NCBI GenBank assembly: GCA_965247125.1
Contig: CBDFGO010000003.1
Span: forward strand, 6,058 to 70,057
Length of the DNA stretch: 64,000 nucleotides
Direction of reading: 5' to 3'
Origin: Rhodothermales bacterium
GTDB lineage: Bacteria > Bacteroidota > Rhodothermia > Rhodothermales > UBA10348
In this document: positions 3,101-52,175 of the stretch, piece by piece
Numbering within the stretch: the stretch's first letter is position 1
Layout of the letters: every line of letters begins with the position of its first letter
The notes under the pieces: generated by a model
Seen by the model: only the letters and a program-made list of their open reading frames with translations
Told to the model about the DNA's origin: nothing
Databases searched by the model: none
Translations under genes and position numbers: made by a program

Positions 3101-3655
3101 GCCCGTGTGGCGCTGCTGCGCGTGCTCCAGGAGGCCTTCGGCAAGAAGGGCGCCCAAGCGCTTCTGCTCGATGCGTCGATGGCAGATCTCGAACAGGACG
3201 CCCACGAGATCGTCAGTGAGGCGACCGACGGAAGGTTTGCAATCGAGATCAAGACGCAGACCCAGAATGCCGACGGATCCATGAAAGAAGACCTGGCGAT
3301 CATGGCCATCGACCAGCACGGACGCCGCGACGTCTCTCGGTTCTCAGGAGGAGAGAAGCGACTATTTCAGATCGCTCTGCGCATCGCGATGACCAGGTGG
3401 ATTGCCCGCCTCACCGGGCGCAGCGCCGGCGCCATTAGAATCGATGAGACCTTCGATGCGCTCGACACGGAGCGCGCGATCGTGGTCATCGAAATGTTCG
3501 AGCGGCTCAAGGATCGGTTCTCGCGTGTCATTCTCGTGACGCACAACCCCTCGTTCGCCTCCCGCATTCCTGATCGCATTGAGCTCGGAAAACAGACGCC
3601 GGCGCCGGCACAGGCCGAGCCCGAAGAAATGGAGCTCGAGGAGGCGCCGCTATGA
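200..3655 (+). CDS. Single-chain SbcD/Mre11-like metallophosphoesterase fused to SbcC/Rad50-like SMC ATPase with a long coiled coil and CxxC zinc hook. The ORF track starts at 122; MKIAILADLH at 200 is the likely start.
   Basis: N-terminus has calcineurin-like phosphoesterase motifs (ILADLH, GDTFD, GNHD, GHGQ, GDFH). Walker A is AANGTGKT. A roughly 500-aa coiled-coil region contains CAPCP, a CxxC hook. C-terminus has the ABC signature FSGGEKR, Walker B/D-loop IRIDETFDALD and H-loop ILVTHNP. The TGA stop overlaps the next ATG (ATGA). Confidence 0.8.
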   Translation: MKIAILADLHVRGSDLDVFEAQMSAAIRAMVERDVFTAFVAGDTFDRDNIHDRSASTGRITWTVARLLANSGIRWYLVDGNHDKPNDTTRSANWSLASLDNVTVISEPSRIPMGEGIEFYCVPWYYEAQMAPRIEEALRLQDEHVRAETRVLIGHGQVRGAHMSGTQYCEHGHFAIGSNELLAYGFDHIALGDFHRRQPFYVGALRQLNHGEEGNPQGFEIYDTDSNEVEWVELREAPQYRTLIWTQGEPKPVTNPAEVTRIRTEGWTPTAAEIGDIGPRDKIDPVIERQAIQRRIDDIPEGILSDMHAVLDLYLKANDIEITKELHDELARLLEMGALSASGLQRSARGGTLDIIETHIKEIGPHLDLSIDWSEFGSLVAILAANGTGKTILAEADFACLHGEFPSYPGPLYDVMTQNGSGTSELRTVFKYGEDRYVASRRLHQTAKTKSHEATLEIMEAGAPRIVAGPKVGDFDKAIEHLLGSKQSALVSWFSGQGGTGDICLLPVVDRRRVFGELMGSDGLEELSQRSKQEAAKETAELGEIERSIEAEAGLPEEIRAKDEELIRVDGQLLELGKEQTGADTVLKNLTDTLVGRKEILARGEEAHKGAPDIPRLRTDYQLARLDSDAAAQAAASLPSFEAKASRLEYADGQLSAHQKYSSWKTIDDNLTTSIATQENTIALYDITDADRGNAAAQPTVKVQLDQLNTEAGQLVEKNAELNAAIASAADQVKALEESRQLSPLFGTDCAPCPILASLKAQVGSTEEWKARGRDAELGLESNKKGLARLGPLIEAEENRLELCKAASLKIASAAVHLAPAREALKGYEDQLQSHRKLPPTPSDLTELQAANLTTTAKVLRPEVEQLPVLRDRASKKEELEARTTERHRVLAAAEQQIKLLPDLYVLRSAITAAALEATEAVLRKDSIDGQVVEAKEHRARTAEALEALNVRRKTVWENTQRTSAKKARVALLRVLQEAFGKKGAQALLLDASMADLEQDAHEIVSEATDGRFAIEIKTQTQNADGSMKEDLAIMAIDQHGRRDVSRFSGGEKRLFQIALRIAMTRWIARLTGRSAGAIRIDETFDALDTERAIVVIEMFERLKDRFSRVILVTHNPSFASRIPDRIELGKQTPAPAQAEPEEMELEEAPL

Positions 3656-5459: not shown

Positions 5460-5879
5460 CGCGATCAGCCAATGTAGACCGATATCGCTGAGTTGAACGT
5501 GCTTTAGAAAGTACCAGGCAAGCCCGCCGCTCACTCACATTCAGACTCTTCTGAACATGACGAACGGCCAATCTGCGACGCGACGGGCTTAATACTTTCC
5601 CGTTATTGCCTCTTTCAAGATGGCATTATCAAGAACCTGATCTGCCAGCAGCTTTTTCAGCCGGGTATTCTCCTTCTCGAGTTCCTTGAGACGACGAATG
5701 TCCTGCTTGTGCATCCCGCCGTACTTCTTCTTCCATCGCTAGTAAGTCTGTTCAGTTACTTCAATGGATTTGACAGCTTCAGCTATCGATTGGCCCTGAG
5801 CACTCAGCGATTCAACCGTGCGAAGTTTCTCGATGATCTGGCCTGCGGTGTGTTTACTTCCTTTCATGTTGATGCAGTT
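5460..5879 (-). pseudogene. IS3-family element remnant (IS3-C). Its orfA carries an in-frame TAG and only the first ~40 codons of orfB survive. It is truncated by the neighbouring gene junction and by the IS3-A1 insertion.
   Basis: Minus-strand translation gives MKGSKHTAGQIIEKLRTVESL...TEQTY(TAG)RWKKKYGGM...LRRLKELEKENTRLKKLLADQ, a typical IS3/IS911 OrfA. It is followed by an orfB start, LNVSERRACLVLSKARSTQRY, which then becomes antisense to the exonuclease gene. Confidence 0.6.
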
Positions 5880-7194: not shown

Positions 7195-8046
7195 CTACTC
7201 ACGAAGAACTACGAACAGAAAGGTCGAAAAGAGTCCGAAGTCCCCTTCAATCGCACCGTGATAGATTCCAGGAACTAGTGCCTTGACGTTGATGTCAACT
7301 CCACATTGCTTAGGTTCACATTTCATCCTGCTGATTGCCACACGCTTTCCGGCTGAGTTGTACACATACGTTGTCGCATTCTGTTGATTGTCGTTTCCAA
7401 TGCGAATTGAAACCGTTGAACCGGCTGGATTGGGAAATACATTGACTACAGGATTCGCAACTGAAGGGAGCCGGGGATTCTGCAGACCCACCACTATTTG
7501 TCCACCAATTATGACTCTATACAACTCGTACTGGGCAAAACGGAAGTTAATTTTTGACACGCCGATGTCAGGAGAAAACGTATATGATCGTTCATCATCT
7601 CGACCGCTTACGTCGTCGAAATACATCCGAAGAGAGCCATCGAAGGTTCCTGCGAATACTGGTGAGGTCACATCTCGATCGATTGTGACATCGACTTGGG
7701 ATGTGGGATTTTCGGGATTCGGGAATGAATAGGTGTCTCCTTCTGCCAAGCTGAAATCCAGCATCAGAAAGTCTTGATCGTCATACCGAGCCCATACATT
7801 TCCAGCTCCATCCAGCCTTACCAATTGGATGCCAAAGTAAATGATGTGCTCGTTGACACGATGGTAGAGGGTATCATTTACGATCTGTGTAGTGTCGATG
7901 GTGAAATAGACTGCATCATCAGTGTCGGGATTCGTGGCATCGCTATGCGAAAAGAGGTAGGTCCACTGGCTGTCTATTTCCAACGGCAGAAACTTTACCT
8001 GGGATTGCTGGGCTAAGGCCAAACTGGTCAACCAGAAATACGACAT
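7195..8046 (-). CDS. Secreted protein with a T9SS (Por) C-terminal sorting domain. The ORF track extends to 8103; the signal-peptide Met at about 8046 is the likely start.
   Basis: Signal peptide MSYFWLTSLALAQQ. C-terminal VFPNPAGSTVSIRIG...VYNSAGKRVA...ALVPGIYHG...FVVLRE matches the T9SS CTD pattern. Confidence 0.6.
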   Translation of the reverse strand: MSYFWLTSLALAQQSQVKFLPLEIDSQWTYLFSHSDATNPDTDDAVYFTIDTTQIVNDTLYHRVNEHIIYFGIQLVRLDGAGNVWARYDDQDFLMLDFSLAEGDTYSFPNPENPTSQVDVTIDRDVTSPVFAGTFDGSLRMYFDDVSGRDDERSYTFSPDIGVSKINFRFAQYELYRVIIGGQIVVGLQNPRLPSVANPVVNVFPNPAGSTVSIRIGNDNQQNATTYVYNSAGKRVAISRMKCEPKQCGVDINVKALVPGIYHGAIEGDFGLFSTFLFVVLRE

Positions 8047-8209
8047 AGTCAGAAATGCAGATTTGATGATTCTCACGAGCACAATTTGGCCACTAGAAGG
8101 CATAAAGTTAGACCTGAAGATTTGAGTATATATGGGTATTTCTACCTATTCTGATAGGAAAATATACTTATTCTGAACGTACAAAGAGATGGTCCTATAA
8201 AACTGGACA

Positions 8210-9593
8210 GAGCTATGCCCAAAAGTTGTGTATGGAAGGTTTAGGCAGCGTGTCGTTCTGATGTAATTCCGTCGGTGAATTTGATTCCTTTTTTTACAAG
8301 TTGCAATAGGTGCGGTGCATTCAGTTTCCTCCACTTCTTCTGAGCCTCTTTACATAGACGGAAGGCCATTGCAAGAGCTGTTTCTCGGCTCAGACATCCC
8401 CTCGTTTTGGCGGTCCTGAGGCGCACGGTCGCGAACGTAGATTCGATCGGATTTGTGCTCCGAAGATGGATCCAGTGTTCTGCCGGAAAGTCATAAAAAG
8501 CGAGCAGTTCTTCTCGGTCTTTCACCAGAATCTCTGCTGCTTTCGGATACTTTTGCTGGTAGGCTTTGATGAAAAACAGAAGGGCGCTCTCTGCCTGCTT
8601 TTTTGTTTCTGCTGTATAGATCTGCGTGAGGTGACCTTTTGCCTTCTTCTGAACGGACTTGGGCAGGCGGTTGAGCACATTTGCTGTCTTGTGCACCCAA
8701 CAGCGTGCGGCTCGCGTCTCGGGATAAACTTCTGCGAGAGCACTCCAGAATCCCATGGCTCCATCGGCAACAGCCAGCTTCGGTCCTTGATCCAGCCCGC
8801 GGTGCCTCAGCTCCAGGAGCAACTCTCGCCACGACTGCTTGCTCTCGCGAAAGCCGTCCTCGAGTGCTATAAGCTCCTTCCTTCCATCGGCCGTAGCGCC
8901 GATCACGACCAGCAGACACAGTTTCTGTTTATCCATGCGTACGTTTACGTGAATACCGTCGGCCCAGAAATAGACGTAGTGCTTCTCCTTCAGGCTCCGC
9001 TTTTGCCAGTCTTCGTGCTCCCTTGTCCAAAGCGTCTTCAGGCGCGCAATCGTCGAGGAGGTCAGCCCTGGGGCATCAGGACCAACAAGGGCCGAGAGCG
9101 CTGCCTCAAAGCCGCCCGTTGAAACTCCCTTCAGGTACAACCATGGAATGAGAGCCTCAAGCGAGCGGCTCTTGCGGAGGTAGGCTGGTAGTATCGAACT
9201 GCGGAAACCGATTCTATCCTCACCCCGACCCGTACGGTCGCGTATGCGGGGCATCTTTACAGCGACCTCCCCGATACCAGTCAAAATCTTCCTCTCTGGC
9301 AGATATCCATTGCGAACGATGCGGTGGCGATTCTCTTCGTCGCGCAGGAACTGGTAGCGCTGGCAGAAAGCTTCAACCTCGGCCTCAACGGCTGTGGCCA
9401 GCATCTTTGCGGCCCCTGTTCGCAATACTTCTGTCAACACATCCTCTGTGCTATTGTAGTTCTCGTTCTCGTGTGCGTTATTCGTCTTCATGGGCGGTGT
9501 ATCCTCCAATCTTCGGATTGACAATGACGTAATCATCATCAGGATACGCCGCCTATACCTTTTTCACCCGTACACAACTTTCGGGGTTAACTC
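8210..9593 (-). mobile_element. IS256-family IS, copy 1, inserted into the terminus of IS3-A2.
   Basis: 1384 bp. Imperfect 26-bp IRs: GAGCTATGCCCAAAAGTTGTGTATGG versus the reverse complement GAGTTAACCCCGAAAGTTGTGTACGG. A 9-bp target duplication AACTGGACA flanks both sides. Confidence 0.9.
8241..9539 (-). CDS. IS256-family (mutator-type) transposase, 432 aa.
   Basis: Mutator-type core: LLVVIGATADGRKELIALEDGF...WRELLLELRHRGL...LAVADGAMGFWSALAEVYPETRAARCWVHKTANVLNRLPK. Confidence 0.9.
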   Translation of the reverse strand: MMITSLSIRRLEDTPPMKTNNAHENENYNSTEDVLTEVLRTGAAKMLATAVEAEVEAFCQRYQFLRDEENRHRIVRNGYLPERKILTGIGEVAVKMPRIRDRTGRGEDRIGFRSSILPAYLRKSRSLEALIPWLYLKGVSTGGFEAALSALVGPDAPGLTSSTIARLKTLWTREHEDWQKRSLKEKHYVYFWADGIHVNVRMDKQKLCLLVVIGATADGRKELIALEDGFRESKQSWRELLLELRHRGLDQGPKLAVADGAMGFWSALAEVYPETRAARCWVHKTANVLNRLPKSVQKKAKGHLTQIYTAETKKQAESALLFFIKAYQQKYPKAAEILVKDREELLAFYDFPAEHWIHLRSTNPIESTFATVRLRTAKTRGCLSRETALAMAFRLCKEAQKKWRKLNAPHLLQLVKKGIKFTDGITSERHAA

Positions 9594-10848
9594 AACTGGA
9601 CAGGGTCTTAGGTGGAATCTTGCGGATTGATTATGCTGCTTCTTGAAGCGGCTGGTGATTAAAAAATACGTGATCAGGGGTCTTTCTTCCATGTGAGCTG
9701 TGTCGCCTTTCGTTATTGAAGTAGTCGAAGTATACAGCAATGGATTTGCGGGCTTCAGCCACACTGTCATAGGCTTTAAGGTACACCTCTTCATATTTCA
9801 GGCTACGCCACAGACGTTCAACGAACACGTTGTCCATCCAGCGTCCTTTGCCATCCATAGAGATTTTGATGTCATGATTCTTCAGCACATCAGTAAAGGC
9901 CACGGATGTGAACTGGCTGCCCTGATCCGTATTGAAGATCTCTGGCGCTCCATACACGGCGATTGCTTCTTCGAGCGCTTCCACACAGAAGTCGGTGTCC
10001 ATCGTATTGGAGATCCGGCGTGAGAGTACTTTTCGGCTGTACCAGTCGATGACGGCGACCAGGTAAACGAATCCCCTTTTCATCGGAATGAATGTGATGT
10101 CGCTTGCGTAAACCTGCCGGGGCCGCGTCACGTTGAGCTTACGCAAGAGATACGGATAAATCTTGTGACCCTTTCCCGGAATCGAGGTCCGTTTCTTAGG
10201 ATAAATGGCAATAAGGCCCATCAGACGCATTAATCGCCGGATTCGATGGCGGCCCACAAAAATACCTCTGTCCTCGAGCGCATCCTTCATGGTGCGCGAT
10301 CCTCGCGTGGGCCGCTCAAGGTAGAGCTCATCCAGTTTTTTCATCACGGCCAGGTTCTCTTTGCTCTCGCCCACCGGCTTGTAGTAGGCCGTTGAGCGAT
10401 TCAGCTCCAGCAGATTGCACTGCCGTTTGATGGAGAGGTCGTGGATTGGGTCGATCATTTGGCGGCGCTCACCTACTGGGTGCGACCGAGCGCTTTGGAT
10501 AAAAAATCCTTCTCCATCGAAAGCTCGCCAATCTTGGCGCGAAGCTCCTTGATCTGGCCCTCCTCGTTGTGCTTTCTGGAATGCCCTTTGTCAAAGACCT
10601 CTTCAGCGTCCTGAATCAATTTCTTCTTCCAGGTCTGAATCTGATTCGGGTGCACCTGGAATTGGTCTGCCAACTCGGCCATCGTGCGGTCTCCCTTAAC
10701 CGCCGCCAGTGCTACTTTTGCTTTGAAGGCATTGCTGTGATTTCTTCTTTTGCGACTCATCGTTTGTAGCCTTTCTTGAGGGTGATGAGATCGCAAGATT
10801 CCACCTATAATCAGAGCCAGGCTGTCCAGTCAAACGGGACCATCTCTC
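9594..10848 (-). mobile_element. IS3-family copy A2. Its other terminal 25 bp lie at 8185-8209, separated from the body by the IS256 copy-1 insertion.
   Basis: orfB 9631-10458 and orfA 10473-10796 are nearly identical to copy A1 (P/S and Y/H differences). The element terminus AGAGATGGTCCTATAAAACTGGACAG appears on both sides of the IS256 with the duplicated AACTGGACA. Confidence 0.85.
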
Positions 10849-10882: not shown

Positions 10883-12161
10883 TGACCTTACTCCCATAAA
10901 GTGGACAGGTAGTTAAGCGTACTTTGCATCAATACAGAGGTACGCAATGGGAACGAGAAGGAAGTATTCCAAAGAGTTCAAACTGGAAGCCGTCCAGTTA
11001 GCTGAGATCAGTGGCAACACGAGTCAGACGGCCAGGGAATTGGGCATCAATGCCGGATTGATCAGGCGTTGGAAGCAGCGATTCGAAGAGGATGGTAAAC
11101 GAGCGTTTCCCGGGCACGGTACTCCTCGTGATGAGGAACTCGTCAAACTCCGCAAAGAGCTCAGACGGGTCAAAGAGGAGAACATCGTTCTAAAAAAAGC
11201 CGCCGGTATTTTCAGCAGAGACCTTCGATGAGATACCGGGTTGTGGACGAAGTAAGAGGGTTGGTGCCAGTCGTGCGAGCGTGTACGTTTATGCGGCTAT
11301 CGCCGAGCGGGTATTACGCATGGAGGGGACGCGCACTGAGTATTCGAGAGCATGAAAACCGTGGACTGTTGATTCAGATTCAAACGATTCACCGGGCCAG
11401 CAGGGGTACGTATGGCGCTCCGCGAGTGCATGCCGAGCTTCGCGCTCAAGGCGTCGCGGTAGGGCGTCGTCGCGTGGCTCGTCTGATGCAGCAGAACGGG
11501 ATTAAGGCGCTCAGGCGCCGCAAGAGGCGTGTACAGGCTCCATCCGCTCCTCTTGAGGCTATCAAGGCCAACGTGCTGGATCGTCAATTCATGCCTGACA
11601 GGCCAGGCGCCGTGTGGACAGCCGACATTACATATTTACCGACGGCTGAAGGATGGCTTCGGCGATTTTCTATCGCCGATGGCTGTCGTGCTGGATTTGT
11701 ACTCACGCCGAGTCGTTGGATGGTCAGTACGTCCCTCTCTCGCAAAAGAACTTGCCACCAACGCGCTTCAGAACGCGATTGAGCATCAGCGGCCACGGGC
11801 AGGGCTAATTCATCATTCGGATCGAGGTAGCCAGTACACGAGCTATGAGTACCAACGAATGCTGCGGCGCGAAGGGATCACCATCTCGATGAGCAGGAGC
11901 GGATCCTGTCACGACAATGCTCCAACCGAGAGCTTCTTCGGGACACTCAAAACGGAGATGCACCTTCGAGGAGATCCATTCAATTCACATGCTGAAGCAA
12001 AACGAGGACTCTTCGAATATATCGAGGTTTTCTACAATCGCCAACGTCGACACTCAACCCTTGGATACCAGACGCCGATGGAATTTGAACAACACTATAT
12101 TAACCAACAAACCACCGCAGTGTAGGCTTAATCAACTGTCCAGAAAACCGGAGTAAGGTCA
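10883..12161 (+). mobile_element. Second IS3-family element (IS3-B). Its orfB is frameshifted, so the element is probably inactive.
   Basis: TG...CA termini with IRs TGACCTTACTCC...GGACAG..TTAAG at both ends. orfA spans 10947-11231 (MGTRRKYSKEFKLEAVQL...). orfB is split into two frames (11228-11782 and 11529-12125), with the break near 11650 where VLDLYSRRVVGWS is in the other frame. Confidence 0.8.
11228..12125 (+). pseudogene. IS3-B transposase OrfB, frameshifted.
   Basis: DDE integrase sequence is split across two overlapping frames. Confidence 0.75.
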
Positions 12162-12633
12162 AGACGGTGAGATCGTCGTAGTGTAGTACGGTACTTCTAT
12201 TTGCTAGCAGAGTGTAGTCTTTAAGCTTTGCAAGCACGGGCGTGTAGGCATCCACTGATCCGTGCTGACCTCGATCACGGAACTCCTGGATCCGATTCTG
12301 AAAATCAACGAGGAAGTCGTGTGTTTCAGTATCGGCAGTGCCCTGAACGGCGCGCTTGATCGCAGCGGCCGAAAAATCCTTCCCTTCGACTACGGCATCA
12401 AGAATTGCATCCTCTGCCTTCATCACGATGGACTTCAGGTATGGATTTAGTCTGGCGTGGTGCCGATTCGATTTTCTGATTTCCTTCTGCAGCGGATTCC
12501 AATCCTTTTCCTTGATTCGAACGGGAAGAGCAATCGTCGAGCGCTTACTTCTATGATGGATAACGAGATAAAGAGGAACAGTGCCGTCACGCGTTTTCTT
12601 CCCTCTCCAGGGCACAATACTTATCTTGGCCAT
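12162..12633 (-). pseudogene. Tyrosine recombinase/integrase (Bacteroidota-type N-terminal arm-binding domain), C-terminally truncated by the IS3-B insertion.
   Basis: MAKISIVPWRGKKTRDGTVPLYLVIHHRSKRSTIALPVRIKEKDWNP is homologous to the second integrase at 41797. The ORF tail runs into the IS3-B right end at 12161. Confidence 0.7.
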
Positions 12634-12837
12634 ATGCCAGAAGTTCTATAGAAAAGATGAGTCCAATGACTAAATAGGTGACGTGTAAGGTGACGATTTT
12701 TATCGCTGAAGTCAATATATATAGATTGGTATCACTCGTTATCATCCTAGATATGCTTGAATCTAGCTTAAATCCGACGAAAACCCTGTGAGACCACGTG
12801 ACTGTTGTGTTCCCCCCCCTCTCCGCACCCAGCGAAA

Positions 12838-12868
12838 GCCCCGACTGCGAAAGCAGCCGGGGCTTTTT
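12838..12868 (+). terminator. Rho-independent terminator-like hairpin plus T-run, inside a GC-rich structured noncoding region.
   Basis: GCCCCGACTGC-GAAA-GCAGCCGGGGC followed by TTTTT. A 12-bp inverted repeat CTTTTTGTGTTG/CAACACAAAAAG and GNRA-loop hairpins lie immediately downstream. Confidence 0.35.
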
Positions 12869-13085
12869 GTGTTGAGCCCGTGAAGCTTGCTTCCAAGGGG
12901 CAACACAAAAAGATCAGGGCGAGCGAAGCTCGCGCGGGGCGTACATTGGTAAGGAGTACCAGGGGCTAACCGAGCGCGAAGCGCGAGGTAATCCCCTCTT
13001 CAATCTGAAAGAAAATCCCTATCTCATCCAATACTCACCACAGTCGACACACAACAAATCCAAATGTGATATGCAGACCGCTTGA

Positions 13086-13140
13086 TCTGCCGACGGATGA
13101 TATGCGGCGAGGATGATATGCCGACGGATGATATGCCGAT
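13086..13140. repeat. Short tandem repeat, about 3 units of GGATGATATGCCGAC.
   Basis: CCGACGGATGATATGCGGCGAGGATGATATGCCGACGGATGATATGCCGATCG. It lies roughly 450 bp upstream of the disrupted integrase and is a candidate set of arm-type or iteron sites. Confidence 0.5.
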
Positions 13141-13339
13141 CGCAGTTGATGCCTTAATCCAAAATCGATTCGCCCGTCCATTTGTGTTAAGCCTTTGTAA
13201 CAGTTACACTTATTTCATCTTCGGATTCGGACGATGGCGTGTATTGCGATATCACTGATCCGCAGAGTAAATGTTCTACAGCACGCCGAAGAACTCGTAT
13301 TGAACCTGGATAATTCTTCGTTCGACTAGGTGGTTACTC

Positions 13340-14104
13340 TCACGTTTTTGGAGTTCCTAACAGCATTCGATGATCGTTTCGTTTTGTCCTTTGATGCATC
13401 CAAAGTGTCGGGCCAATGCCTACGGCCAACTGGGCGAGGAGGAGTGTCCACAAAGGATCATCCCGCAATGCCCAGTGAACGATTGCGGCATACCATTCCG
13501 CTGAGAACATCACTGCGAGGGCAAGAACGAACAGCCTTCTCAATCTTATCGTCCAGACCTTTTCGTCGAGAAGAAAAGGAATCAAGTTGAACAGGGCCAA
13601 ACAACCGATAATGATAAAGTAAATCATTCCCTGCTGGTGCAACGGTCTCCCTGATCGCCAGATTTCTAGAGGCCACGATGCTCGTACGAGAGTGTATCCA
13701 AACGAGTATGCAGAGACTACACCCATCACGAGGGAGAATGATCGACCCACGCCGTACGTGATGACTCCAAATTTAGAGTCATATACGCCCAATTCAGCTT
13801 TGAACAGTGAAAAGTATCTGCGAACGGATCCGGATTTCAGCCACTCTGAGCGATAATCGCATCTAAGTTGAGATTCTGGTCCAACTTGAGCTACCGCTTC
13901 TCGGAATGCATTTTGTTCAGCTACGCCTCGAGCCAGCAGGTTGGAGTAGCAATCCAGTAGATGAGATTCCAGTTCGGCGACGTCGTCATCGCCGTAAAAT
14001 GGGCGAACCTTGAACGGTTTTCTCCATTTTCTCAATTCCGAGATTATGTCAAAGATGGCTTCGTTCCCCACAAATTGTTCAACAACTTGCTCGCCAGATT
14101 CCAC
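13340..14104 (-). CDS. PadR-associated membrane protein, function unknown.
   Basis: The C-terminal half is hydrophobic with at least 3 TM segments. It overlaps the upstream PadR gene by 61 bp, as is common for padR partner genes. Confidence 0.5.
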   Translation of the reverse strand: MESGEQVVEQFVGNEAIFDIISELRKWRKPFKVRPFYGDDDVAELESHLLDCYSNLLARGVAEQNAFREAVAQVGPESQLRCDYRSEWLKSGSVRRYFSLFKAELGVYDSKFGVITYGVGRSFSLVMGVVSAYSFGYTLVRASWPLEIWRSGRPLHQQGMIYFIIIGCLALFNLIPFLLDEKVWTIRLRRLFVLALAVMFSAEWYAAIVHWALRDDPLWTLLLAQLAVGIGPTLWMHQRTKRNDHRMLLGTPKT

Positions 14105-14465: not shown

Positions 14466-14580
14466 AAGCGCATGTTGCGGACTCGCACGACTGGCTGAGC
14501 CGGTTGGAAACGATTACTTTCTGAAAGGCGTGCGAATGCTCGCCGCAAGTCCGCCAGCCGTTATATACTCTCTTGAAAAT
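14466..14580. repeat. About 115-bp imperfect direct repeat, copy A. Copy B is at 16572-16686.
   Basis: GCATGTTGCGG(A/G)CTCGCACGACTGGCTGAGCCGGTTGGAAAC...GAATGCTCGCCGCAA(G/A)TCCGCCAGCCGTTAT, about 90% identical. The two copies flank the IS110 element plus higBA. Confidence 0.8.
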
Positions 14581-15860
14581 CAAGCCTTCACAGCGGGTAT
14601 CTGGTAGAATTTCTCTCCTTTAAAAGGAGTTTCGTTCTTGAGCATCCCCAAAATGGAGTGCAGCAGTTTTCTCATGACTGCAACGATGGCCACAAGTGGT
14701 TTTTTGCCCTGGGCGATCAGGTGTTCGTAGAAGGCCATGATGTTGGGCTCCCATTTGATGGCTACGAGTGCGGGCATGTAGAGTGCTCGCCTGAGCTTGA
14801 CGTTTCCCATCTTTGAAATACGCTCACGCTTTGCGACCGAGTCGCCAGAAGTGTATTTGCGAGGATCAAGTCCTGCATGTGCTACCCACTGACGTACGGA
14901 CATGCCATCGGGCAGAATCAAGATTTCTGGCAGAATCATGACAGCGCTTTTCTGTGCAATTCCTCGAATGCTGGTGAGTAGCAGAAATGCGGAATTCATC
15001 TGGTCGTGCCCTTCAATTAAACGAATTGCCTGTTCTAGCATGGCGGCGAGTCTGCGTTCCAGATGTCGAATGTTCACCTCGATGTCATTGATTACGATGG
15101 CTGATGTGGTCACAGTTGCACAGGCTTGGTGCAACCGTGCTTGCTCGCGGGTTCTCTCTGTGGTGAGGGCATGCATGCGGCGCGACATGCCTCTGAGCTC
15201 TAGAATCTCGTCTTTCGGAGGTGTCCAGAGCACAAATACCATGCGGCTTGCAAAATCGGCCAGCATATCGGCATCGACGCGGTCTGTCTTTGATCGGCGC
15301 ATTTGTGCTCGTGCAAACTGACGCGTGGCAGATGGATTGGCTACCATCAGTTCAACAGCGGAACACGAATCAAGGGTCAGCGCGAGGTCGAGACTGTAAT
15401 TGCCCGTTGCCTCGATCACCACACGCACGAACGCTCCAGGCTCCATAATCCACTTGATGAGCTGGCCATGACCTGCTGCGGTATTTAAAAACTGTTTCTG
15501 GCGAGCAGAACGATTTTCTTGGTGGATACATACATCGATCGTCGCCTTGCTTATATCGCAGCCAACAAAGACATTAGTGCACATGAGTCACTCCGGTTTG
15601 TAACGTGAAACGGATAATGATTCCGGTTTCCCATCCCGACCCAGGCGGCGGACATTGTATATGCAGGCTCACAGTATCACGCGAAATGATCCGGGCCTCG
15701 TAAACTCCTCAGCCTTCTGCTTGGGTCAGGCGGGGGGCTGATATAACGGACAGGTTCACTGACAAACAGGACCTAATGCAGCTACAGCCTTCCCCAGAAA
15801 CCTCAACATAACGAGAGGCGGGAAACCGACTGTTTTCTAGATACAATACGGTCTTTGTAA
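14577..15860 (-). mobile_element. IS110-family element. Boundaries are approximate; the stop codon abuts repeat A and a ~300-bp noncoding end lies 5' of the transposase.
   Basis: Transposase 14580-15584 (334 aa) has a DEDD-type N-terminus VGCDISKATIDVC and an IS110/IS116/IS902-type C-terminal domain. No terminal IRs are expected for this family. Confidence 0.65.
14580..15584 (-). CDS. IS110-family (DEDD) transposase.
   Basis: MCTNVFVGCDISKATIDVCIHQ...; C-terminal ...KKPLVAIVAVMRKLLHSILGMLKNETPF. Confidence 0.75.
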   Translation of the reverse strand: MCTNVFVGCDISKATIDVCIHQENRSARQKQFLNTAAGHGQLIKWIMEPGAFVRVVIEATGNYSLDLALTLDSCSAVELMVANPSATRQFARAQMRRSKTDRVDADMLADFASRMVFVLWTPPKDEILELRGMSRRMHALTTERTREQARLHQACATVTTSAIVINDIEVNIRHLERRLAAMLEQAIRLIEGHDQMNSAFLLLTSIRGIAQKSAVMILPEILILPDGMSVRQWVAHAGLDPRKYTSGDSVAKRERISKMGNVKLRRALYMPALVAIKWEPNIMAFYEHLIAQGKKPLVAIVAVMRKLLHSILGMLKNETPFKGEKFYQIPAVKA

Positions 15861-15904: not shown

Positions 15905-16234
15905 ATGAGTCAAGAAAAACCACTCGTTTGGTTGCATGGTGAGGTGAAATCGCCGCCGTTCTCCAAGAATGCAAGATTGGAGGCTGGTTTTCTACTTCGC
16001 CGGCTTCAAATGGGTGAGAAACTTGAAATGCCGCATTCTAGACCGATGCCCTCGGTTGAGAAAAGGTGTCACGAACTTAGAATCAAGGACGTATATAAGA
16101 CCTGGCGAATCATGTATGCGATCGAATTTGACGCGATCGTGATCTTGGAAGTTTTTCCCAAGAAGACAGGAACTACTCCTAATTTGGTTTTGAACATCTC
16201 TCGAGAGCGTATTCGGTTATATCGATCTTTATAG
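15905..16234 (+). CDS. higB: HigB-like toxin (Gp49/RelE-ParE superfamily).
   Basis: ...LRRLQMGEKLEMPHSRPMP...HELRIKDVYKTWRIMYAIEFDAIVILEVFPKKTGTTP matches the Gp49-like HigB pattern. The toxin-first gene order is typical of higBA. Confidence 0.8.
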   Translation: MSQEKPLVWLHGEVKSPPFSKNARLEAGFLLRRLQMGEKLEMPHSRPMPSVEKRCHELRIKDVYKTWRIMYAIEFDAIVILEVFPKKTGTTPNLVLNISRERIRLYRSL

Positions 16235-16244
16235 AGGTCTAGCC

Positions 16245-16568
16245 ATGAAAGAAGACAAATTAGATAAGCTCAAAGCTGCCGGATGGTCGGTTGGTAACGC
16301 TGCTGAGTTTCTTGGACTCTCTCCTGAAGAAGAGAAGTTTGTCGAGTTAAAGTTGACTTTAGCTGCAGCAATTAAACGACTTCGAAAAGCTAAACGGCTC
16401 ACCCAAGTTGAGCTGGCTAAAAGGATTGGTTCAAGTCAGTCCAGAATTGCGAAGATGGAGTCAGCTGACTCATCAGTGAGTACTGACTTGATGATGAAGT
16501 CTCTTTTTAGCTTGGGAGCATCCCCGTCAGACATCGCAAATTATTTCGGGTCGAGAAAGACCGTATAA
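16245..16568 (+). CDS. higA: HigA-like XRE-family HTH antitoxin.
   Basis: The HTH is LTQVELAKRIGSSQSRIAKME, and the gene lies 10 bp downstream of the toxin. Confidence 0.8.
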   Translation: MKEDKLDKLKAAGWSVGNAAEFLGLSPEEEKFVELKLTLAAAIKRLRKAKRLTQVELAKRIGSSQSRIAKMESADSSVSTDLMMKSLFSLGASPSDIANYFGSRKTV

Positions 16569-16798: not shown

Positions 16799-18182
16799 GA
16801 GCTATGCCCAAAAGTTGTGTATGGAAGGTTTAGGCAGCGTGTCGTTCTGATGTAATTCCGTCGGTGAATTTGATTCCTTTTTTTACAAGTTGCAATAGGT
16901 GCGGTGCATTCAGTTTCCTCCACTTCTTCTGAGCCTCTTTACATAGACGGAAGGCCATTGCAAGAGCTGTTTCTCGGCTCAGACATCCCCTCGTTTTGGC
17001 GGTCCTGAGGCGCACGGTCGCGAACGTAGATTCGATCGGATTTGTGCTCCGAAGATGGATCCAGTGTTCTGCCGGAAAGTCATAAAAAGCGAGCAGTTCT
17101 TCTCGGTCTTTCACCAGAATCTCTGCTGCTTTCGGATACTTTTGCTGGTAGGCTTTGATGAAAAACAGAAGGGCGCTCTCTGCCTGCTTTTTTGTTTCTG
17201 CTGTATAGATCTGCGTGAGGTGACCTTTTGCCTTCTTCTGAACGGACTTGGGCAGGCGGTTGAGCACATTTGCTGTCTTGTGCACCCAACAGCGTGCGGC
17301 TCGCGTCTCGGGATAAACTTCTGCGAGAGCACTCCAGAATCCCATGGCTCCATCGGCAACAGCCAGCTTCGGTCCTTGATCCAGCCCGCGGTGCCTCAGC
17401 TCCAGGAGCAACTCTCGCCACGACTGCTTGCTCTCGCGAAAGCCGTCCTCGAGTGCTATAAGCTCCTTCCTTCCATCGGCCGTAGCGCCGATCACGACCA
17501 GCAGACACAGTTTCTGTTTATCCATGCGTACGTTTACGTGAATACCGTCGGCCCAGAAATAGACGTAGTGCTTCTCCTTCAGGCTCCGCTTTTGCCAGTC
17601 TTCGTGCTCCCTTGTCCAAAGCGTCTTCAGGCGCGCAATCGTCGAGGAGGTCAGCCCTGGGGCATCAGGACCAACAAGGGCCGAGAGCGCTGCCCCAAAG
17701 CCGCCCGTTGAAACTCCCTTCAGGTACAACCATGGAATGAGAGCCTCAAGCGAGCGGCTCTTGCGGAGGTAGGCTGGTAGTATCGAACTGCGGAAACCGA
17801 TTCTATCCTCACCCCGACCCGTACGGTCGCGTATGCGGGGCATCTTTACAGCGACCTCCCCGATACCAGTCAAAATCTTCCTCTCTGGCAGATATCCATT
17901 GCGAACGATGCGGTGGCGATTCTCTTCGTCGCGCAGGAACTGGTAGCGCTGGCAGAAAGCTTCAACCTCGGCCTCAACGGCTGTGGCCAGCATCTTTGCG
18001 GCCCCTGTTCGCAATACTTCTGTCAACACATCCTCTGTGCTATTGTAGTTCTCGTTCTCGTGTGCGTTATTCGTCTTCATGGGCGGTGTATCCTCCAATC
18101 TTCGGATTGACAATGACGTAATCATCATCAGGATACGCCGCCTATACCTTTTTCACCCGTACACAACTTTCGGGGTTAACTC
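16799..18182 (-). mobile_element. IS256-family IS, copy 2.
   Basis: Same 1384-bp element; the transposase carries an E-to-G substitution (GGFGAAL). No recognisable target duplication. Confidence 0.9.
16830..18128 (-). CDS. IS256-family transposase.
   Basis: 432 aa, identical apart from one substitution. Confidence 0.9.
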   Translation of the reverse strand: MMITSLSIRRLEDTPPMKTNNAHENENYNSTEDVLTEVLRTGAAKMLATAVEAEVEAFCQRYQFLRDEENRHRIVRNGYLPERKILTGIGEVAVKMPRIRDRTGRGEDRIGFRSSILPAYLRKSRSLEALIPWLYLKGVSTGGFGAALSALVGPDAPGLTSSTIARLKTLWTREHEDWQKRSLKEKHYVYFWADGIHVNVRMDKQKLCLLVVIGATADGRKELIALEDGFRESKQSWRELLLELRHRGLDQGPKLAVADGAMGFWSALAEVYPETRAARCWVHKTANVLNRLPKSVQKKAKGHLTQIYTAETKKQAESALLFFIKAYQQKYPKAAEILVKDREELLAFYDFPAEHWIHLRSTNPIESTFATVRLRTAKTRGCLSRETALAMAFRLCKEAQKKWRKLNAPHLLQLVKKGIKFTDGITSERHAA

Positions 18183-24014: not shown

Positions 24015-25398
24015 GAGCTATGCCCAAAAGTTGTGTATGGAAGGTTTAGGCAGCGTGTCGTTCTGATGTAATTCCGTCGGTGAATTTGATTCCTTTTTTT
24101 ACAAGTTGCAATAGGTGCGGTGCATTCAGTTTCCTCCACTTCTTCTGAGCCTCTTTACATAGACGGAAGGCCATTGCAAGAGCTGTTTCTCGGCTCAGAC
24201 ATCCCCTCGTTTTGGCGGTCCTGAGGCGCACGGTCGCGAACGTAGATTCGATCGGATTTGTGCTCCGAAGATGGATCCAGTGTTCTGCCGGAAAGTCATA
24301 AAAAGCGAGCAGTTCTTCTCGGTCTTTCACCAGAATCTCTGCTGCTTTCGGATACTTTTGCTGGTAGGCTTTGATGAAAAACAGAAGGGCGCTCTCTGCC
24401 TGCTTTTTTGTTTCTGCTGTATAGATCTGCGTGAGGTGACCTTTTGCCTTCTTCTGAACGGACTTGGGCAGGCGGTTGAGCACATTTGCTGTCTTGTGCA
24501 CCCAACAGCGTGCGGCTCGCGTCTCGGGATAAACTTCTGCGAGAGCACTCCAGAATCCCATGGCTCCATCGGCAACAGCCAGCTTCGGTCCTTGATCCAG
24601 CCCGCGGTGCCTCAGCTCCAGGAGCAACTCTCGCCACGACTGCTTGCTCTCGCGAAAGCCGTCCTCGAGTGCTATAAGCTCCTTCCTTCCATCGGCCGTA
24701 GCGCCGATCACGACCAGCAGACACAGTTTCTGTTTATCCATGCGTACGTTTACGTGAATACCGTCGGCCCAGAAATAGACGTAGTGCTTCTCCTTCAGGC
24801 TCCGCTTTTGCCAGTCTTCGTGCTCCCTTGTCCAAAGCGTCTTCAGGCGCGCAATCGTCGAGGAGGTCAGCCCTGGGGCATCAGGACCAACAAGGGCCGA
24901 GAGCGCTGCCTCAAAGCCGCCCGTTGAAACTCCCTTCAGGTACAACCATGGAATGAGAGCCTCAAGCGAGCGGCTCTTGCGGAGGTAGGCTGGTAGTATC
25001 GAACTGCGGAAACCGATTCTATCCTCACCCCGACCCGTACGGTCGCGTATGCGGGGCATCTTTACAGCGACCTCCCCGATACCAGTCAAAATCTTCCTCT
25101 CTGGCAGATATCCATTGCGAACGATGCGGTGGCGATTCTCTTCGTCGCGCAGGAACTGGTAGCGCTGGCAGAAAGCTTCAACCTCGGCCTCAACGGCTGT
25201 GGCCAGCATCTTTGCGGCCCCTGTTCGCAATACTTCTGTCAACACATCCTCTGTGCTATTGTAGTTCTCGTTCTCGTGTGCGTTATTCGTCTTCATGGGC
25301 GGTGTATCCTCCAATCTTCGGATTGACAATGACGTAATCATCATCAGGATACGCCGCCTATACCTTTTTCACCCGTACACAACTTTCGGGGTTAACTC
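24015..25398 (-). mobile_element. IS256-family IS, copy 3.
   Basis: Identical 1384-bp element with no target duplication. Confidence 0.9.
24046..25344 (-). CDS. IS256-family transposase.
   Basis: 432 aa. Confidence 0.9.
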   Translation of the reverse strand: MMITSLSIRRLEDTPPMKTNNAHENENYNSTEDVLTEVLRTGAAKMLATAVEAEVEAFCQRYQFLRDEENRHRIVRNGYLPERKILTGIGEVAVKMPRIRDRTGRGEDRIGFRSSILPAYLRKSRSLEALIPWLYLKGVSTGGFEAALSALVGPDAPGLTSSTIARLKTLWTREHEDWQKRSLKEKHYVYFWADGIHVNVRMDKQKLCLLVVIGATADGRKELIALEDGFRESKQSWRELLLELRHRGLDQGPKLAVADGAMGFWSALAEVYPETRAARCWVHKTANVLNRLPKSVQKKAKGHLTQIYTAETKKQAESALLFFIKAYQQKYPKAAEILVKDREELLAFYDFPAEHWIHLRSTNPIESTFATVRLRTAKTRGCLSRETALAMAFRLCKEAQKKWRKLNAPHLLQLVKKGIKFTDGITSERHAA

Positions 25399-26860: not shown

Positions 26861-28244
26861 GAGCTATGCCCAAAAGTTGTGTATGGAAGGTTTAGGCAGC
26901 GTGTCGTTCTGATGTAATTCCGTCGGTGAATTTGATTCCTTTTTTTACAAGTTGCAATAGGTGCGGTGCATTCAGTTTCCTCCACTTCTTCTGAGCCTCT
27001 TTACATAGACGGAAGGCCATTGCAAGAGCTGTTTCTCGGCTCAGACATCCCCTCGTTTTGGCGGTCCTGAGGCGCACGGTCGCGAACGTAGATTCGATCG
27101 GATTTGTGCTCCGAAGATGGATCCAGTGTTCTGCCGGAAAGTCATAAAAAGCGAGCAGTTCTTCTCGGTCTTTCACCAGAATCTCTGCTGCTTTCGGATA
27201 CTTTTGCTGGTAGGCTTTGATGAAAAACAGAAGGGCGCTCTCTGCCTGCTTTTTTGTTTCTGCTGTATAGATCTGCGTGAGGTGACCTTTTGCCTTCTTC
27301 TGAACGGACTTGGGCAGGCGGTTGAGCACATTTGCTGTCTTGTGCACCCAACAGCGTGCGGCTCGCGTCTCGGGATAAACTTCTGCGAGAGCACTCCAGA
27401 ATCCCATGGCTCCATCGGCAACAGCCAGCTTCGGTCCTTGATCCAGCCCGCGGTGCCTCAGCTCCAGGAGCAACTCTCGCCACGACTGCTTGCTCTCGCG
27501 AAAGCCGTCCTCGAGTGCTATAAGCTCCTTCCTTCCATCGGCCGTAGCGCCGATCACGACCAGCAGACACAGTTTCTGTTTATCCATGCGTACGTTTACG
27601 TGAATACCGTCGGCCCAGAAATAGACGTAGTGCTTCTCCTTCAGGCTCCGCTTTTGCCAGTCTTCGTGCTCCCTTGTCCAAAGCGTCTTCAGGCGCGCAA
27701 TCGTCGAGGAGGTCAGCCCTGGGGCATCAGGACCAACAAGGGCCGAGAGCGCTGCCTCAAAGCCGCCCGTTGAAACTCCCTTCAGGTACAACCATGGAAT
27801 GAGAGCCTCAAGCGAGCGGCTCTTGCGGAGGTAGGCTGGTAGTATCGAACTGCGGAAACCGATTCTATCCTCACCCCGACCCGTACGGTCGCGTATGCGG
27901 GGCATCTTTACAGCGACCTCCCCGATACCAGTCAAAATCTTCCTCTCTGGCAGATATCCATTGCGAACGATGCGGTGGCGATTCTCTTCGTCGCGCAGGA
28001 ACTGGTAGCGCTGGCAGAAAGCTTCAACCTCGGCCTCAACGGCTGTGGCCAGCATCTTTGCGGCCCCTGTTCGCAATACTTCTGTCAACACATCCTCTGT
28101 GCTATTGTAGTTCTCGTTCTCGTGTGCGTTATTCGTCTTCATGGGCGGTGTATCCTCCAATCTTCGGATTGACAATGACGTAATCATCATCAGGATACGC
28201 CGCCTATACCTTTTTCACCCGTACACAACTTTCGGGGTTAACTC
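26861..28244 (-). mobile_element. IS256-family IS, copy 4.
   Basis: Identical element, same orientation as copy 3, with no target duplication. Confidence 0.9.
26892..28190 (-). CDS. IS256-family transposase.
   Basis: 432 aa. Confidence 0.9.
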   Translation of the reverse strand: MMITSLSIRRLEDTPPMKTNNAHENENYNSTEDVLTEVLRTGAAKMLATAVEAEVEAFCQRYQFLRDEENRHRIVRNGYLPERKILTGIGEVAVKMPRIRDRTGRGEDRIGFRSSILPAYLRKSRSLEALIPWLYLKGVSTGGFEAALSALVGPDAPGLTSSTIARLKTLWTREHEDWQKRSLKEKHYVYFWADGIHVNVRMDKQKLCLLVVIGATADGRKELIALEDGFRESKQSWRELLLELRHRGLDQGPKLAVADGAMGFWSALAEVYPETRAARCWVHKTANVLNRLPKSVQKKAKGHLTQIYTAETKKQAESALLFFIKAYQQKYPKAAEILVKDREELLAFYDFPAEHWIHLRSTNPIESTFATVRLRTAKTRGCLSRETALAMAFRLCKEAQKKWRKLNAPHLLQLVKKGIKFTDGITSERHAA

Positions 28245-41597: not shown

Positions 41598-41796
41598 GAA
41601 TGGGCTGACTAAAGAGTGTGGAGCTAAGGAGAGTCGAACCTTATCTCGGTTTCGCGAACGTTTCGCTGGATATCATGCCTATATGGGCGTTACAGAGTGA
41701 AATTTCTCTGGACCGTTTCTAACATATTGCAAATCTAGAAAAAATCCGTCACCTTATCCGTCACCTATTTCATTTAAGTTAACCCCCATTACACCG

Positions 41797-42663
41797 GTGG
41801 CTAAAGTTCGCATTGTCCCGTGGACGGGTAAGAAAGATGCCGAGGGTAGAATGCCACTCTATCTCGTCATTCACCATAAGAACAGGCGCTCAACCATCGC
41901 CTTGCCTGTCCGCATAAAGATGAAAGACTGGAATCCCAGGCGTGGAGAAATTCGCAATTCAAATCCAGACCACGTGAGGCTCAATCTCCGTCTCTTGGAG
42001 GTACTCGGCAAAGCGAGAGCTGCCCTTCAGGACGCACTGTTAGAGGATACAACTATCTCCTCGCACCGAATCAAAGCATCAATATTAGGAGATGCTTCGG
42101 ACGCTGAAAGAGATTTCTTTGCCTACTATGAATCCCAGCTTAATGCATATCGACAAAGACAGCAATGGGCAACATCGGAAGCGTACCGGGTAGCTCTCAA
42201 AAAGCTACGTGACTACACCCGCGGGTCGAGCGGACGAACGACACTTGACTTCGACGACTTGACAGTATCCTTCATTGAAGGATTCCGGACATACCTCATC
42301 GGTTACTGTGGCAACGGCAAGAACACCGTCCACAAAAATCTGGCAAGTATTCGCACGATTCTTTATTCAGCGATCCGTGAAGGACGCTTCCCGCAGGAAA
42401 AGAACCCCTTCTTCCAGATTCGGATGGAAAAACAGAAAAGGACGAAGAACAAATCGATTGATATCGAAGATGTCTGGAAAATCGAAGACGCGGACCTCGG
42501 CGAGGGCAGAATCATAGATGTTCGTAACTGCTTTGTGTTCGCATTCTACAATGCTGGTATGCGTGTTTCCGATGTCCTTCAGCTTCAAGGACAGGATATG
42601 GTAAAGCGAAGCGGAATTTGGAGAGTTGAGTATGAAATGGAGAAGACGGGTGCAGACTCTTTC
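41797..42663 (+). pseudogene. Tyrosine recombinase/integrase, C-terminally truncated by IS256 copy 5.
   Basis: MAKVRIVPWTGKKDAEGRMPLYLVIHHKNRRSTIALPVRIKMKDWNP is homologous to the 12162-12633 fragment. The tail ...FELCPKVVYG is IS-encoded. Confidence 0.75.
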
Positions 42664-52140: not shown

Positions 52141-52175
52141 TGACCTTACTCCGGTTTTCTGGACAGTTGATTAAG
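52141..52175. repeat. Solo 35-bp right-end IR fragment of IS3-B.
   Basis: TGACCTTACTCCGGTTTTCTGGACAGTTGATTAAG is a 35/35 match to the reverse complement of 12127-12161. Confidence 0.8.

Follow-up and report, generated by a model that had tools for sequence, protein, structure and literature searches.

The subject of this study is one junction in a stretch of 64,000 nucleotides (nt) of contig CBDFGO010000003.1 from a Rhodothermales bacterium; the whole stretch is referred to as the window. At this junction, the 5' fragment of a tyrosine integrase gene (int1), cut by an insertion sequence (IS) of the IS3 family (IS3-B), lies beside a displaced 3' end of a tRNA-Ser gene, the presumed core of an attachment (att) site, and beside a GC-rich hairpin module of ~180 nt. 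The window also holds a second integrase fragment (int2). Loci of other contigs are cited by L numbers and proteins by P numbers. The features of the junction are as follows.

10883–12161, plus strand: IS3-B, an IS3-family insertion sequence truncating int1, with orfA (HTH_Tnp_1) and orfB (rve) assigned by Pfam.
12162–12633, minus strand: int1, the 5' fragment of a tyrosine integrase gene, codons 1–157, assigned by Pfam and alignments.
12676–12695, plus strand: two direct AGGTGACG repeats, candidate arm-type integrase-binding sites, from comparison with int2 and homologues.
12778–12795, plus strand: conserved block CGAAAACCCTGTGAGACC on the element side of the junction, from an alignment of six integrase-upstream regions.
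12812–12827, plus strand: putative att core, the displaced tRNA-Ser 3' end; the same 15–16 nt end intact tRNA-Ser genes in many loci.
12835–12874, plus strand: H1, a GC-rich hairpin with a GAAA loop and then a T-tract, read from sequence, folding and covariation.
12863–12912, plus strand: H2, a long hairpin with an outer stem of T-tract and A-tract and the apex GAAG-CTTG-CTTC (CTTG at 12886–12889).
12919–12940, plus strand: H3, GCGAGC-GAA-GCTCGC followed by CGGGGC, which is able to pair with the 5' arm of H1.
12961–13001, plus strand: H4, a T-arm-like hairpin, AGGGG...GTAATCCCCT, with an inner GCGC-GAA-GCGC hairpin.

The int1 reading frame begins at 12633 on the minus strand (start MAKISIVPWRGKK), and a Pfam scan located Arm-DNA-bind_5 (PF17293) at residues 10–93 of its product with an E value of 2.3e-14. 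The remnant consists of this arm-binding domain and only the beginning of the SAM-like domain. It lacks a complete SAM-like core-binding domain and the catalytic domain PF00589, and no match to the C-terminal part was found anywhere within the window. An intact integrase of 422 amino acids (aa), P0010, is 100% identical to int1 over aa 1–157, and PF13102 and PF00589 are carried both by P0010 and by the int1 homologues. Judged from its domain content, int1 in the window is a pseudogene of a true Arm-DNA-bind_5 / Phage_int_SAM_5 / Phage_integrase member. Outside the window, another copy of the element with the intact P0010 is probably present in the genome and may still be functional.

IS3-B extends from TGACCTTACTCC... 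at 10883 to ...GGAGTAAGGTCA finishing at 12161, and its left and right ends are inverted repeats (74%). A metagenomic relative of the same 90% cluster (L136) has 88% nucleotide identity to 12162–12676, and the alignment halts exactly at 12162. The end of the IS and the stop of this alignment confirm a preliminary description of this DNA, which had reported an N-terminally intact integrase cut by IS3-B at 12161; the homology of the two integrases, claimed there as well, was upheld with 47% identity over 168 residues. No target duplication matching across the two flanks of IS3-B was found and its left flank is the end of another IS, which points to further IS-mediated rearrangement after the truncation of int1. 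The integrase alignment scan gave one locus in genome contigs (L008) and none in viral contigs, and the best annotated phage or plasmid matches to the integrase have at most 29% identity.

Homologues with 59–68% protein identity to int1 are encoded in L001 and L002 (P0014), L003 (P0025), L004–L007 (P0024), and L008, a Rhodothermales metagenome-assembled genome. Read upstream from the integrase start, these loci have an AGGTGAC pair, a GAAACCCCTGTGAAACC block, GTGT or GCGT followed by TCCCnCCCnCTCCGCA, a GC hairpin with a T-tract, and a long hairpin with a AGCTTGCT apex. Further hairpins follow the long hairpin in all of them but L008; their stem sequences differ while the pairing is kept.

The AGGTGACG pair has a 12-nt spacing and is situated 43–62 nt upstream of the start codon in both int1 and int2. 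Four of the five occurrences of this motif in the 64 kb form two pairs, one upstream of each integrase, and the pair is kept in five homologous loci (L001, L003, L004, L008, and L140). By position and conservation, these repeats are candidate sites that may overlap with the int promoter. Comparison of the int1 and int2 upstream regions, which had been proposed in the preliminary description, revealed AAATAGGTGACG-NN-TAAGGTGACG as the sole clearly conserved block. The preliminary description had assigned the att and arm sites to the hairpins and tandem repeats upstream of int1; the comparison instead supports the AGGTGACG pair and the tRNA-Ser fragment, neither of which had been recognized there.

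The tRNA-Ser fragment at 12812–12827 comprises the 3' strand of the T-stem, the acceptor 3' strand CCTCTCC, the discriminator G (12825), and CA. In the window it is preceded by GTGTT where the tRNA has the T-loop GGTTCGAAT. A scan of metagenome contigs for TCCCNCCCNCTCCGCA followed 6–14 nt later by CCCCG gave 120 loci, in most of which ...GGGTTCGAA precedes the motif. A tRNA-Ser gene with the anticodon GCT, TGA, GGA, or CGA was called by ARAGORN in 33 of the 38 loci that were checked, and the motif stands after GGTTCGAA inside the called genes. In the window and in L001, L003, L004, and L008, the core motif comes after GTGT or GCGT and the integrase, and the DNA to its left is not tRNA and is conserved among the integrase loci. 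This arrangement would place the crossover in the T-loop / T-stem class.

The hairpin module begins directly after the fragment. H1 is a stem-loop, AAAGCCCCGACTGC-GAAA-GCAGCCGGGGCTTT, at 12835–12866 with one A.C mismatch and is followed by T5, so that a GC-rich stem-loop stands directly before a U-tract in the predicted transcript; H1 with its T-tract resembles an intrinsic terminator that acts on the tRNA-sense strand. The terminator-like hairpin of the preliminary description is this structure, with its coordinates corrected from 12838–12868. On the minus strand, a terminator scan read H3 and a T-tract as a terminator (12933–12919). The perfect 12-bp inverted repeat reported earlier, CTTTTTGTGTTG and CAACACAAAAAG at 12863–12874 and 12901–12912, is present and forms the outer stem of H2, with a spacer of 26 nt, not 24. 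Several hairpins with GNRA loops had been described at 12860–12990. The hairpins are there, and the sole true GNRA tetraloop is GAAA; the hairpins at 12919–12933 and ~12973–12985 have GAA triloops. After H4 the window has only AATCCCCTCTTC, a degenerate second copy of the tRNA 3' end. Folding of 12800–13005 compared with dinucleotide shuffles gave z = -3.5 for the plus strand and -4.9 for the minus strand. A second copy of 12770–12990, which had been suggested as an attL/attR partner, was not found within the window.

Homologues of the module occur downstream of intact tRNA genes in other loci, namely tRNA-Ser with GCT, TGA, GGA, and CGA anticodons and tRNA-Pro(TGG). Positions 12828–13001 of the window are homologous to it, with 76% identity to the copy in L096 (187 nt) and 72% to that in L070; both of these follow tRNA-Ser(GCT), and the rest of both loci has no match to the window. 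Modules after intact tRNA-Ser are exemplified by L024, L041, L044, L070, L073, L084, L090, L096, L099, L100, L131, and L132, and more distant, AT-richer examples are found in L027, L059, L068, L074, L078, L082, L106, and L113. No integrase homologue is encoded in the loci that have the module after a tRNA gene. An open reading frame (ORF) starting with MLTRRII, which by inspection we take to be hisF, is located ~240 nt past the tRNA in L070 and L131. A covariance model built from 14 module copies also found the module after tRNA-Pro(TGG) in L050 (5555–5737) and L081 (1368–1554), where the last hairpin and the terminal repeat copy the 3' end of tRNA-Pro (TCCTrTCTTCCCGAC). The tRNA-Ser(GCT) genes of the latter two loci have no full module; a long trailer hairpin follows the gene in L081, and H1 with a T-tract follows it in L050.

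The order of element, tRNA-Ser fragment, and module was also observed in at least two other junction types. One of them, AAATAAAC...GGTTCGAA, is represented by L033, L075, and L116, and the other by an IMG/VR contig (L147) with a 587-aa ORF containing TAGGGTAGCA repeats. Searches of viral contigs with a generic H1 pattern found ordinary terminators only, and those with an H4 pattern found mostly coding noise, with L147 as the single real module. Between the two modules of L033 (see below) there are a 242-aa ORF and a gene pair that by inspection resembles a toxin–antitoxin pair of the HigB/HigA type, and the region looks like a tandem array of islets.

These occurrences bear on the interpretation given in the preliminary description, in which the hairpins at 12835–12990 and the 15-nt repeats at 13086–13140 together form the P' arm region of the int1 element. 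The cluster does adjoin the integrase and the core in the window, L001, L003, L004, and L008, and arm regions are expected to hold repeats. However, the same cluster is found at intact tRNA genes without an integrase homologue and at two or more other junction types, the AGGTGAC motif is absent from all 31 modules examined, and unrelated sequence follows the modules in other loci. Since the module recurs at such tRNA genes and lacks AGGTGAC, it is not the int1 arm region. In an integrated element, moreover, the P' arm is expected at the end opposite the P arm. In relatives the hairpin cluster is a conserved intergenic spacer, an outcome that the preliminary description had itself named as contrary to its proposal. 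What stands of that proposal is the att end of a decayed element, and the cluster belongs to tRNA loci. The P' arm interpretation is largely refuted already, and we consider it very improbable.

The 15-nt repeats occupy the following interval.

13067–13144, no strand assigned: tandem repeat with the unit TGATATGCCGACGGA, ~4.7 copies, outside the conserved module.

Tandem Repeats Finder reported 13067–13139 with a period of 15, 4.7 copies, and 80% matches, two of the copies being near-perfect. The repeat is real, and its extent and copy number differ from the three copies at 13086–13140 described earlier. Its unit is confined to this one spot within the window, which gives no support to an array of arm sites.

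Read from the discriminator, the module consists of a trailer, H1 with a U-tract, H2, H3, an anti-trailer, a C-rich run, and H4. The H1 loop is mostly of the G..A form, and the H3 loop is C-GNA-G or C-GNNA-G (G..A in most members). The outer stem of H2 pairs the U-tract with an A-tract. H4 has the form GGGAUCAC...GUAAUCCC, with a 3' strand identical to the last part of the T-loop and the 3' strand of the T-stem. In L041, L096, L059, L068, L078, and L050, the tRNA 3' end is directly repeated after H4; the repeat reaches 46 nt in L096 and ~95 nt in L041. H4 (GGGAT...GTAATCCC) is present in 2–4 tandem copies in L100 (~3149–3250), L004 (~5570–5700), L082 (~2925–2990), and L070 (~3190–3290).

The pairing was examined in 31 copies whose alignment was fitted to the covariance model, which favours structure; in this alignment, standard pairs filled 94.5% of the cells (76.2% in shuffles) and 22 of 26 pairs had changed on both sides (shuffle mean 12.2). 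None of 500 shuffles reached any of the observed pairing measures, and when the partners were slid by 1–3 columns at most 55% of the cells were paired. Changes on both sides were seen at 11 of the 13 pairs of H1 and covariation at all five pairs of the inner stem of H2, and a T-rich tract follows H1 in all 31 homologues. Three observations are independent of the fitted alignment. The trailer and anti-trailer form Watson–Crick runs of 8–21 nt in 22 of 28 copies, beyond nearly all shuffles and often starting from the GCA of the tRNA end; G.U pairs outnumber A.C pairs by 41 to 10 on the tRNA-sense strand; and the apex of H2 is CUUG in 24 of the 30 copies with a called apex. When copies in a good state of preservation were folded by minimum energy, they formed a four-way junction composed of the trailer helix, the top of H1, the long H2, and H3, which is then followed by H4. 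Of the module, RNAalifold on a MAFFT alignment predicted just H1, the apex of H2, and the outer stem of H4, to which it added an implausible core:H3 pairing, and the covariance-model alignment was used instead. From the strand bias and the conserved loops, we would say that selection acts on the folded tRNA-sense single strand, most simply that of the tRNA precursor.

Such a structure may also be viewed as an independent small RNA gene that is transcribed from a promoter of its own and acts in trans, as a tRNA-like decoy or a protein-binding RNA, unrelated to termination or mobile DNA. The strong covariation, the strand bias, and the conserved CUUG and GNA/GNNA loops agree with this, as do the four-way-junction fold and the T-arm-like H4 followed by an acceptor-like 3' strand. 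However, the long-range helix starts at the tRNA discriminator, which implies an RNA that is part of the tRNA precursor and no separate transcript. Furthermore, the stretch from the tRNA end to H1 showed nothing resembling a promoter, and H1 with its U-tract at the very start would halt most transcription before the remainder is made. No Rfam family matches the module: Rfam 15 gave no gathering-level match in the window, so that no known housekeeping RNA is assigned there, and in nine other module loci only the tRNA itself reached the threshold. The best permissive match in the window, sar RNA (RF00262), scored 31 bits against a threshold of 43 and arose from two generic hairpins. A separate small RNA gene is improbable in our view. 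The small structured RNA that the preliminary description had offered as an alternative nevertheless came closer to the truth than its arm-site proposal in that the structure covaries and is strand-biased, although it belongs to no known Rfam family.

The arrangement is rather probably, if with some reservation, the integrase-proximal (attR type) junction of an element that was inserted in a tRNA-Ser 3' end beside a resident module. The module (12828–13001) would already have been downstream of tRNA-Ser(GCT) before the int1 element was inserted. The Bacteroidota-type integrase would bind the paired AGGTGACG through its N-terminal arm-binding domain, and the pair could also serve in autoregulation of int, as in KplE1 and P4. 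Recombination at the boundary between the T-loop and T-stem of tRNA-Ser would have left the last 14–16 nt of the tRNA (12812–12827) displaced and joined to the DNA of the element. A later IS3-family insertion would have cut the integrase after codon 157, and further IS-mediated rearrangement would have removed the remaining element, with loss of mobility. As for the module, H1 and the U-tract would terminate the tRNA transcript, and H3 with the complementary U-tract on the other strand would terminate convergent transcription, in the window that of the PadR operon ending at 13340. The module may thereby insulate the tRNA gene as a structured trailer and bidirectional insulator, and in read-through RNA its parts would refold as a four-way junction that starts at the discriminator base.

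Several observations weigh against this interpretation. An intact tRNA-Ser was not found in the window, in which ARAGORN detected no tRNA or transfer-messenger RNA (tmRNA), or within 6–10 kb in L001, L003, L004, L008, and L136, and a second core copy was absent from the element-side flanks that were searched, with up to three mismatches allowed. With neither an intact tRNA-Ser nor a second core on the element side, only half of the island signature is seen. The order of integrase, core, and module would also be expected of an intact attP or of a junction inside a tandem array, and the lack of an intact tRNA within 6–10 kb on the element side of any integrase locus leaves room for an array junction in place of a terminal attR. 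The module of the window is degenerate as well, with the A.C mismatch in H1, a trailer helix of only 6 bp, and no four-way-junction fold; it lacks the segment that pairs with the 3' arm of H1 and folds as three separate hairpins and H4. Moreover, L033 holds two different modules, each behind its own core and 2 kb apart (7923–8110 and 10159–10325), which suggests that modules travel with elements instead of being purely resident. Finally, the role of a terminator does not explain the second tRNA-end copy after H4, matched to Ser or Pro, and does not fit the near-identical H1 sequences behind the genes of different tRNA-Ser isoacceptors or the difference between L024 and L096, which are the same locus without and with the segment of H3, H4, and the repeat.

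The latter findings lead to a different view of the module, as a miniature cargo-less integrative element or an att-only satellite of ~180 bp that is flanked by tRNA-end repeats and would depend for its excision and re-insertion on tRNA-specific integrases acting in trans. The window would then be a tandem array in which a dead int1 element is followed by a degenerate mini-element. In L096, L041, L059, L068, L078, and L050, the unit stands between direct repeats that copy 15–95 nt of the tRNA 3' end, and the flanking repeat matches the particular tRNA, Ser or Pro. The tandem array of two distinct modules in L033, the near-identical H1 after different isoacceptors, the matched repeat, and the state of one locus without (L024) and with (L096) H3, H4, and the second direct repeat (DR2) fit an att-flanked mini-element, or its fused ends, better than a simple terminator. 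In size it is below both the ~250 bp given for attP and the 2-kb cut-off applied by island finders (PMC4383910). On the other hand, no clean pair of an empty site and a filled site was found, the arm motif AGGTGAC is missing from the modules, and the second repeat is absent or degenerate in several members. A circle of 180 bp would be a poor recombination substrate, which we count against this view. In addition, the covariation and G.U bias point to a folded single strand, and protein-binding att arms need neither. On balance, we regard a mobile mini-element as rather unlikely, and the junction of an int1 element with a resident module remains the interpretation that we favour.

In literature searches we found no description of the module, and it appears undescribed. 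We tentatively suggest, with less confidence than for the junction itself, that it represents a widespread class of ~180-nt units at tRNA-Ser and tRNA-Pro 3' ends in Rhodothermales- or Bacteroidota-like bacteria, either as a trailer RNA for maturation or att protection or as the smallest known integrative element. It recurs across very different G+C content, is absent from Rfam, and sits where tRNA-targeting integrases act. A trailer RNA would bear on tRNA 3' processing and on how tRNA genes are insulated in a phylum that has received little study, and a mini att-flanked element would be a new, very small mobile DNA and a systematic blind spot of island finders. Either way, it would allow att sites to be annotated better in Rhodothermota and Bacteroidota. 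The integrase scar, for its part, illustrates how an IS-ridden genome inactivates integrative elements.

The second integrase fragment, int2 (41797–42693), is cut by a Mutator/IS256-type copy. Its AGGTGACG pair is at 41747–41766, and further upstream there are a 3' fragment of tRNA-Ala or tmRNA type, GGTTCGACTCTCCTTAGCTCCACA, at 41640–41617 on the minus strand and then a terminator hairpin at 41598–41559. No module like that of int1 is present near int2. A relative with 74% identity (L140) has the same layout as int2 and no tRNA within 9.7 kb. The acceptor strand of the int2 core, TAGCTCC followed by A, may stem from tRNA-Ala or tmRNA, which fit its sequence equally well.

Both integrases are cut within an unusually heavy IS load. 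Nine ORFs for 432-aa transposases were found in the 64 kb at the following positions; the one that was scanned is of the Mutator/IS256 family, and the translations seen are near-identical.

8241–9539, 16830–18128, 24046–25344, 26892–28190, 42718–44016: ORFs of 432-aa transposases.
44400–45698, 50461–51759, 52541–53839, 54462–55760: further ORFs of 432-aa transposases.

IS3- and IS110-family elements are present in the window too. A solo copy of the right end of IS3-B, 35 nt long and 100% identical, lies at 52141–52175 and abuts the end of another IS3-like element, which is evidence of IS–IS recombination or nested insertion. Adjacent small ORFs of 109 and 107 aa at 15905–16568, beside an IS110-family transposase gene (14580–15584), may, judged by inspection, encode a HigB/RelE-type toxin and a helix-turn-helix antitoxin. 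On the right flank of the junction, a gene for a 254-aa membrane protein occupies 13340–14104 on the minus strand, and its nearest relatives have 76% identity. In its metagenomic relatives (L137–L139), ~75 nt past the stop codon are conserved (13265–13345) before the sequences diverge, and these contigs finish before the position of the 15-nt repeat. The genome-contig scan found no relative of this protein.

The module can be compared with several known kinds of intergenic structure. Like repetitive extragenic palindromes (REP), bacterial interspersed mosaic elements (BIME), and miniature inverted-repeat transposable elements (MITE), it consists of intergenic GC-rich hairpins with stable G..A loops, and H4 is tandemly repeated in L100, L004, and L082. 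Unlike them, it is a single copy in the 64 kb, is fixed at tRNA 3' ends, and is conserved in structure and not in sequence. The many copies and constant terminal sequence of REP/BIME or MITE families were not seen in the window, and the module has neither short target duplications nor terminal inverted repeats with a constant sequence. The resemblance to bidirectional intrinsic terminators lies in a hairpin with a U-tract on each strand and in the complementarity of the A-tract and U-tract; beyond ordinary terminators, the module has the central CUUG hairpin, the four-way-junction refolding, the T-arm-like hairpin, and the tRNA-end duplicate.

The integrase junction, in comparison, is a new but ordinary, decayed member of a well-known kind. 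The integrase promoters of KplE1 IntS and P4 Int overlap the att arm sites and are autoregulated, and in this class the N-terminal domain binds arm-type sites while the catalytic domain acts at the core (PMC2951348). Similarly, the candidate arm-type repeats stand between int1 and its tRNA-derived core, 43–62 nt upstream of the start codon; the neighbouring tRNA is intact in KplE1 (attL) and a fragment here. A precedent for the target is NBU2 / IntN2 of Bacteroides, which integrates at the 3' ends of tRNA-Ser genes (PMC6692515, citing Wang et al. 2000). Like it, the int1 element has a Bacteroidota-type tyrosine recombinase that would act at a tRNA-Ser 3' end; the source of int1 is a Rhodothermia-like lineage. 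The signature of a genomic island used by Islander is a tDNA together with a displaced tDNA fragment (PMC4383910). Here, the integrase lies inside the candidate island and the 3' tRNA fragment is found at one end; the intact cognate tRNA at the other end was not found in the 64-kb window or in the flanks of L001, L003, L004, L008, and L136. Unlike typical tRNA-integrated islands, this one has an integrase cut short by an IS, and the window lacks the remaining element. In agreement with such islands, the integrase adjoins the tRNA 3' fragment in the orientation of the tRNA, the sublocation class is T/J, and tandem arrays are found in related loci (PMC4383910).

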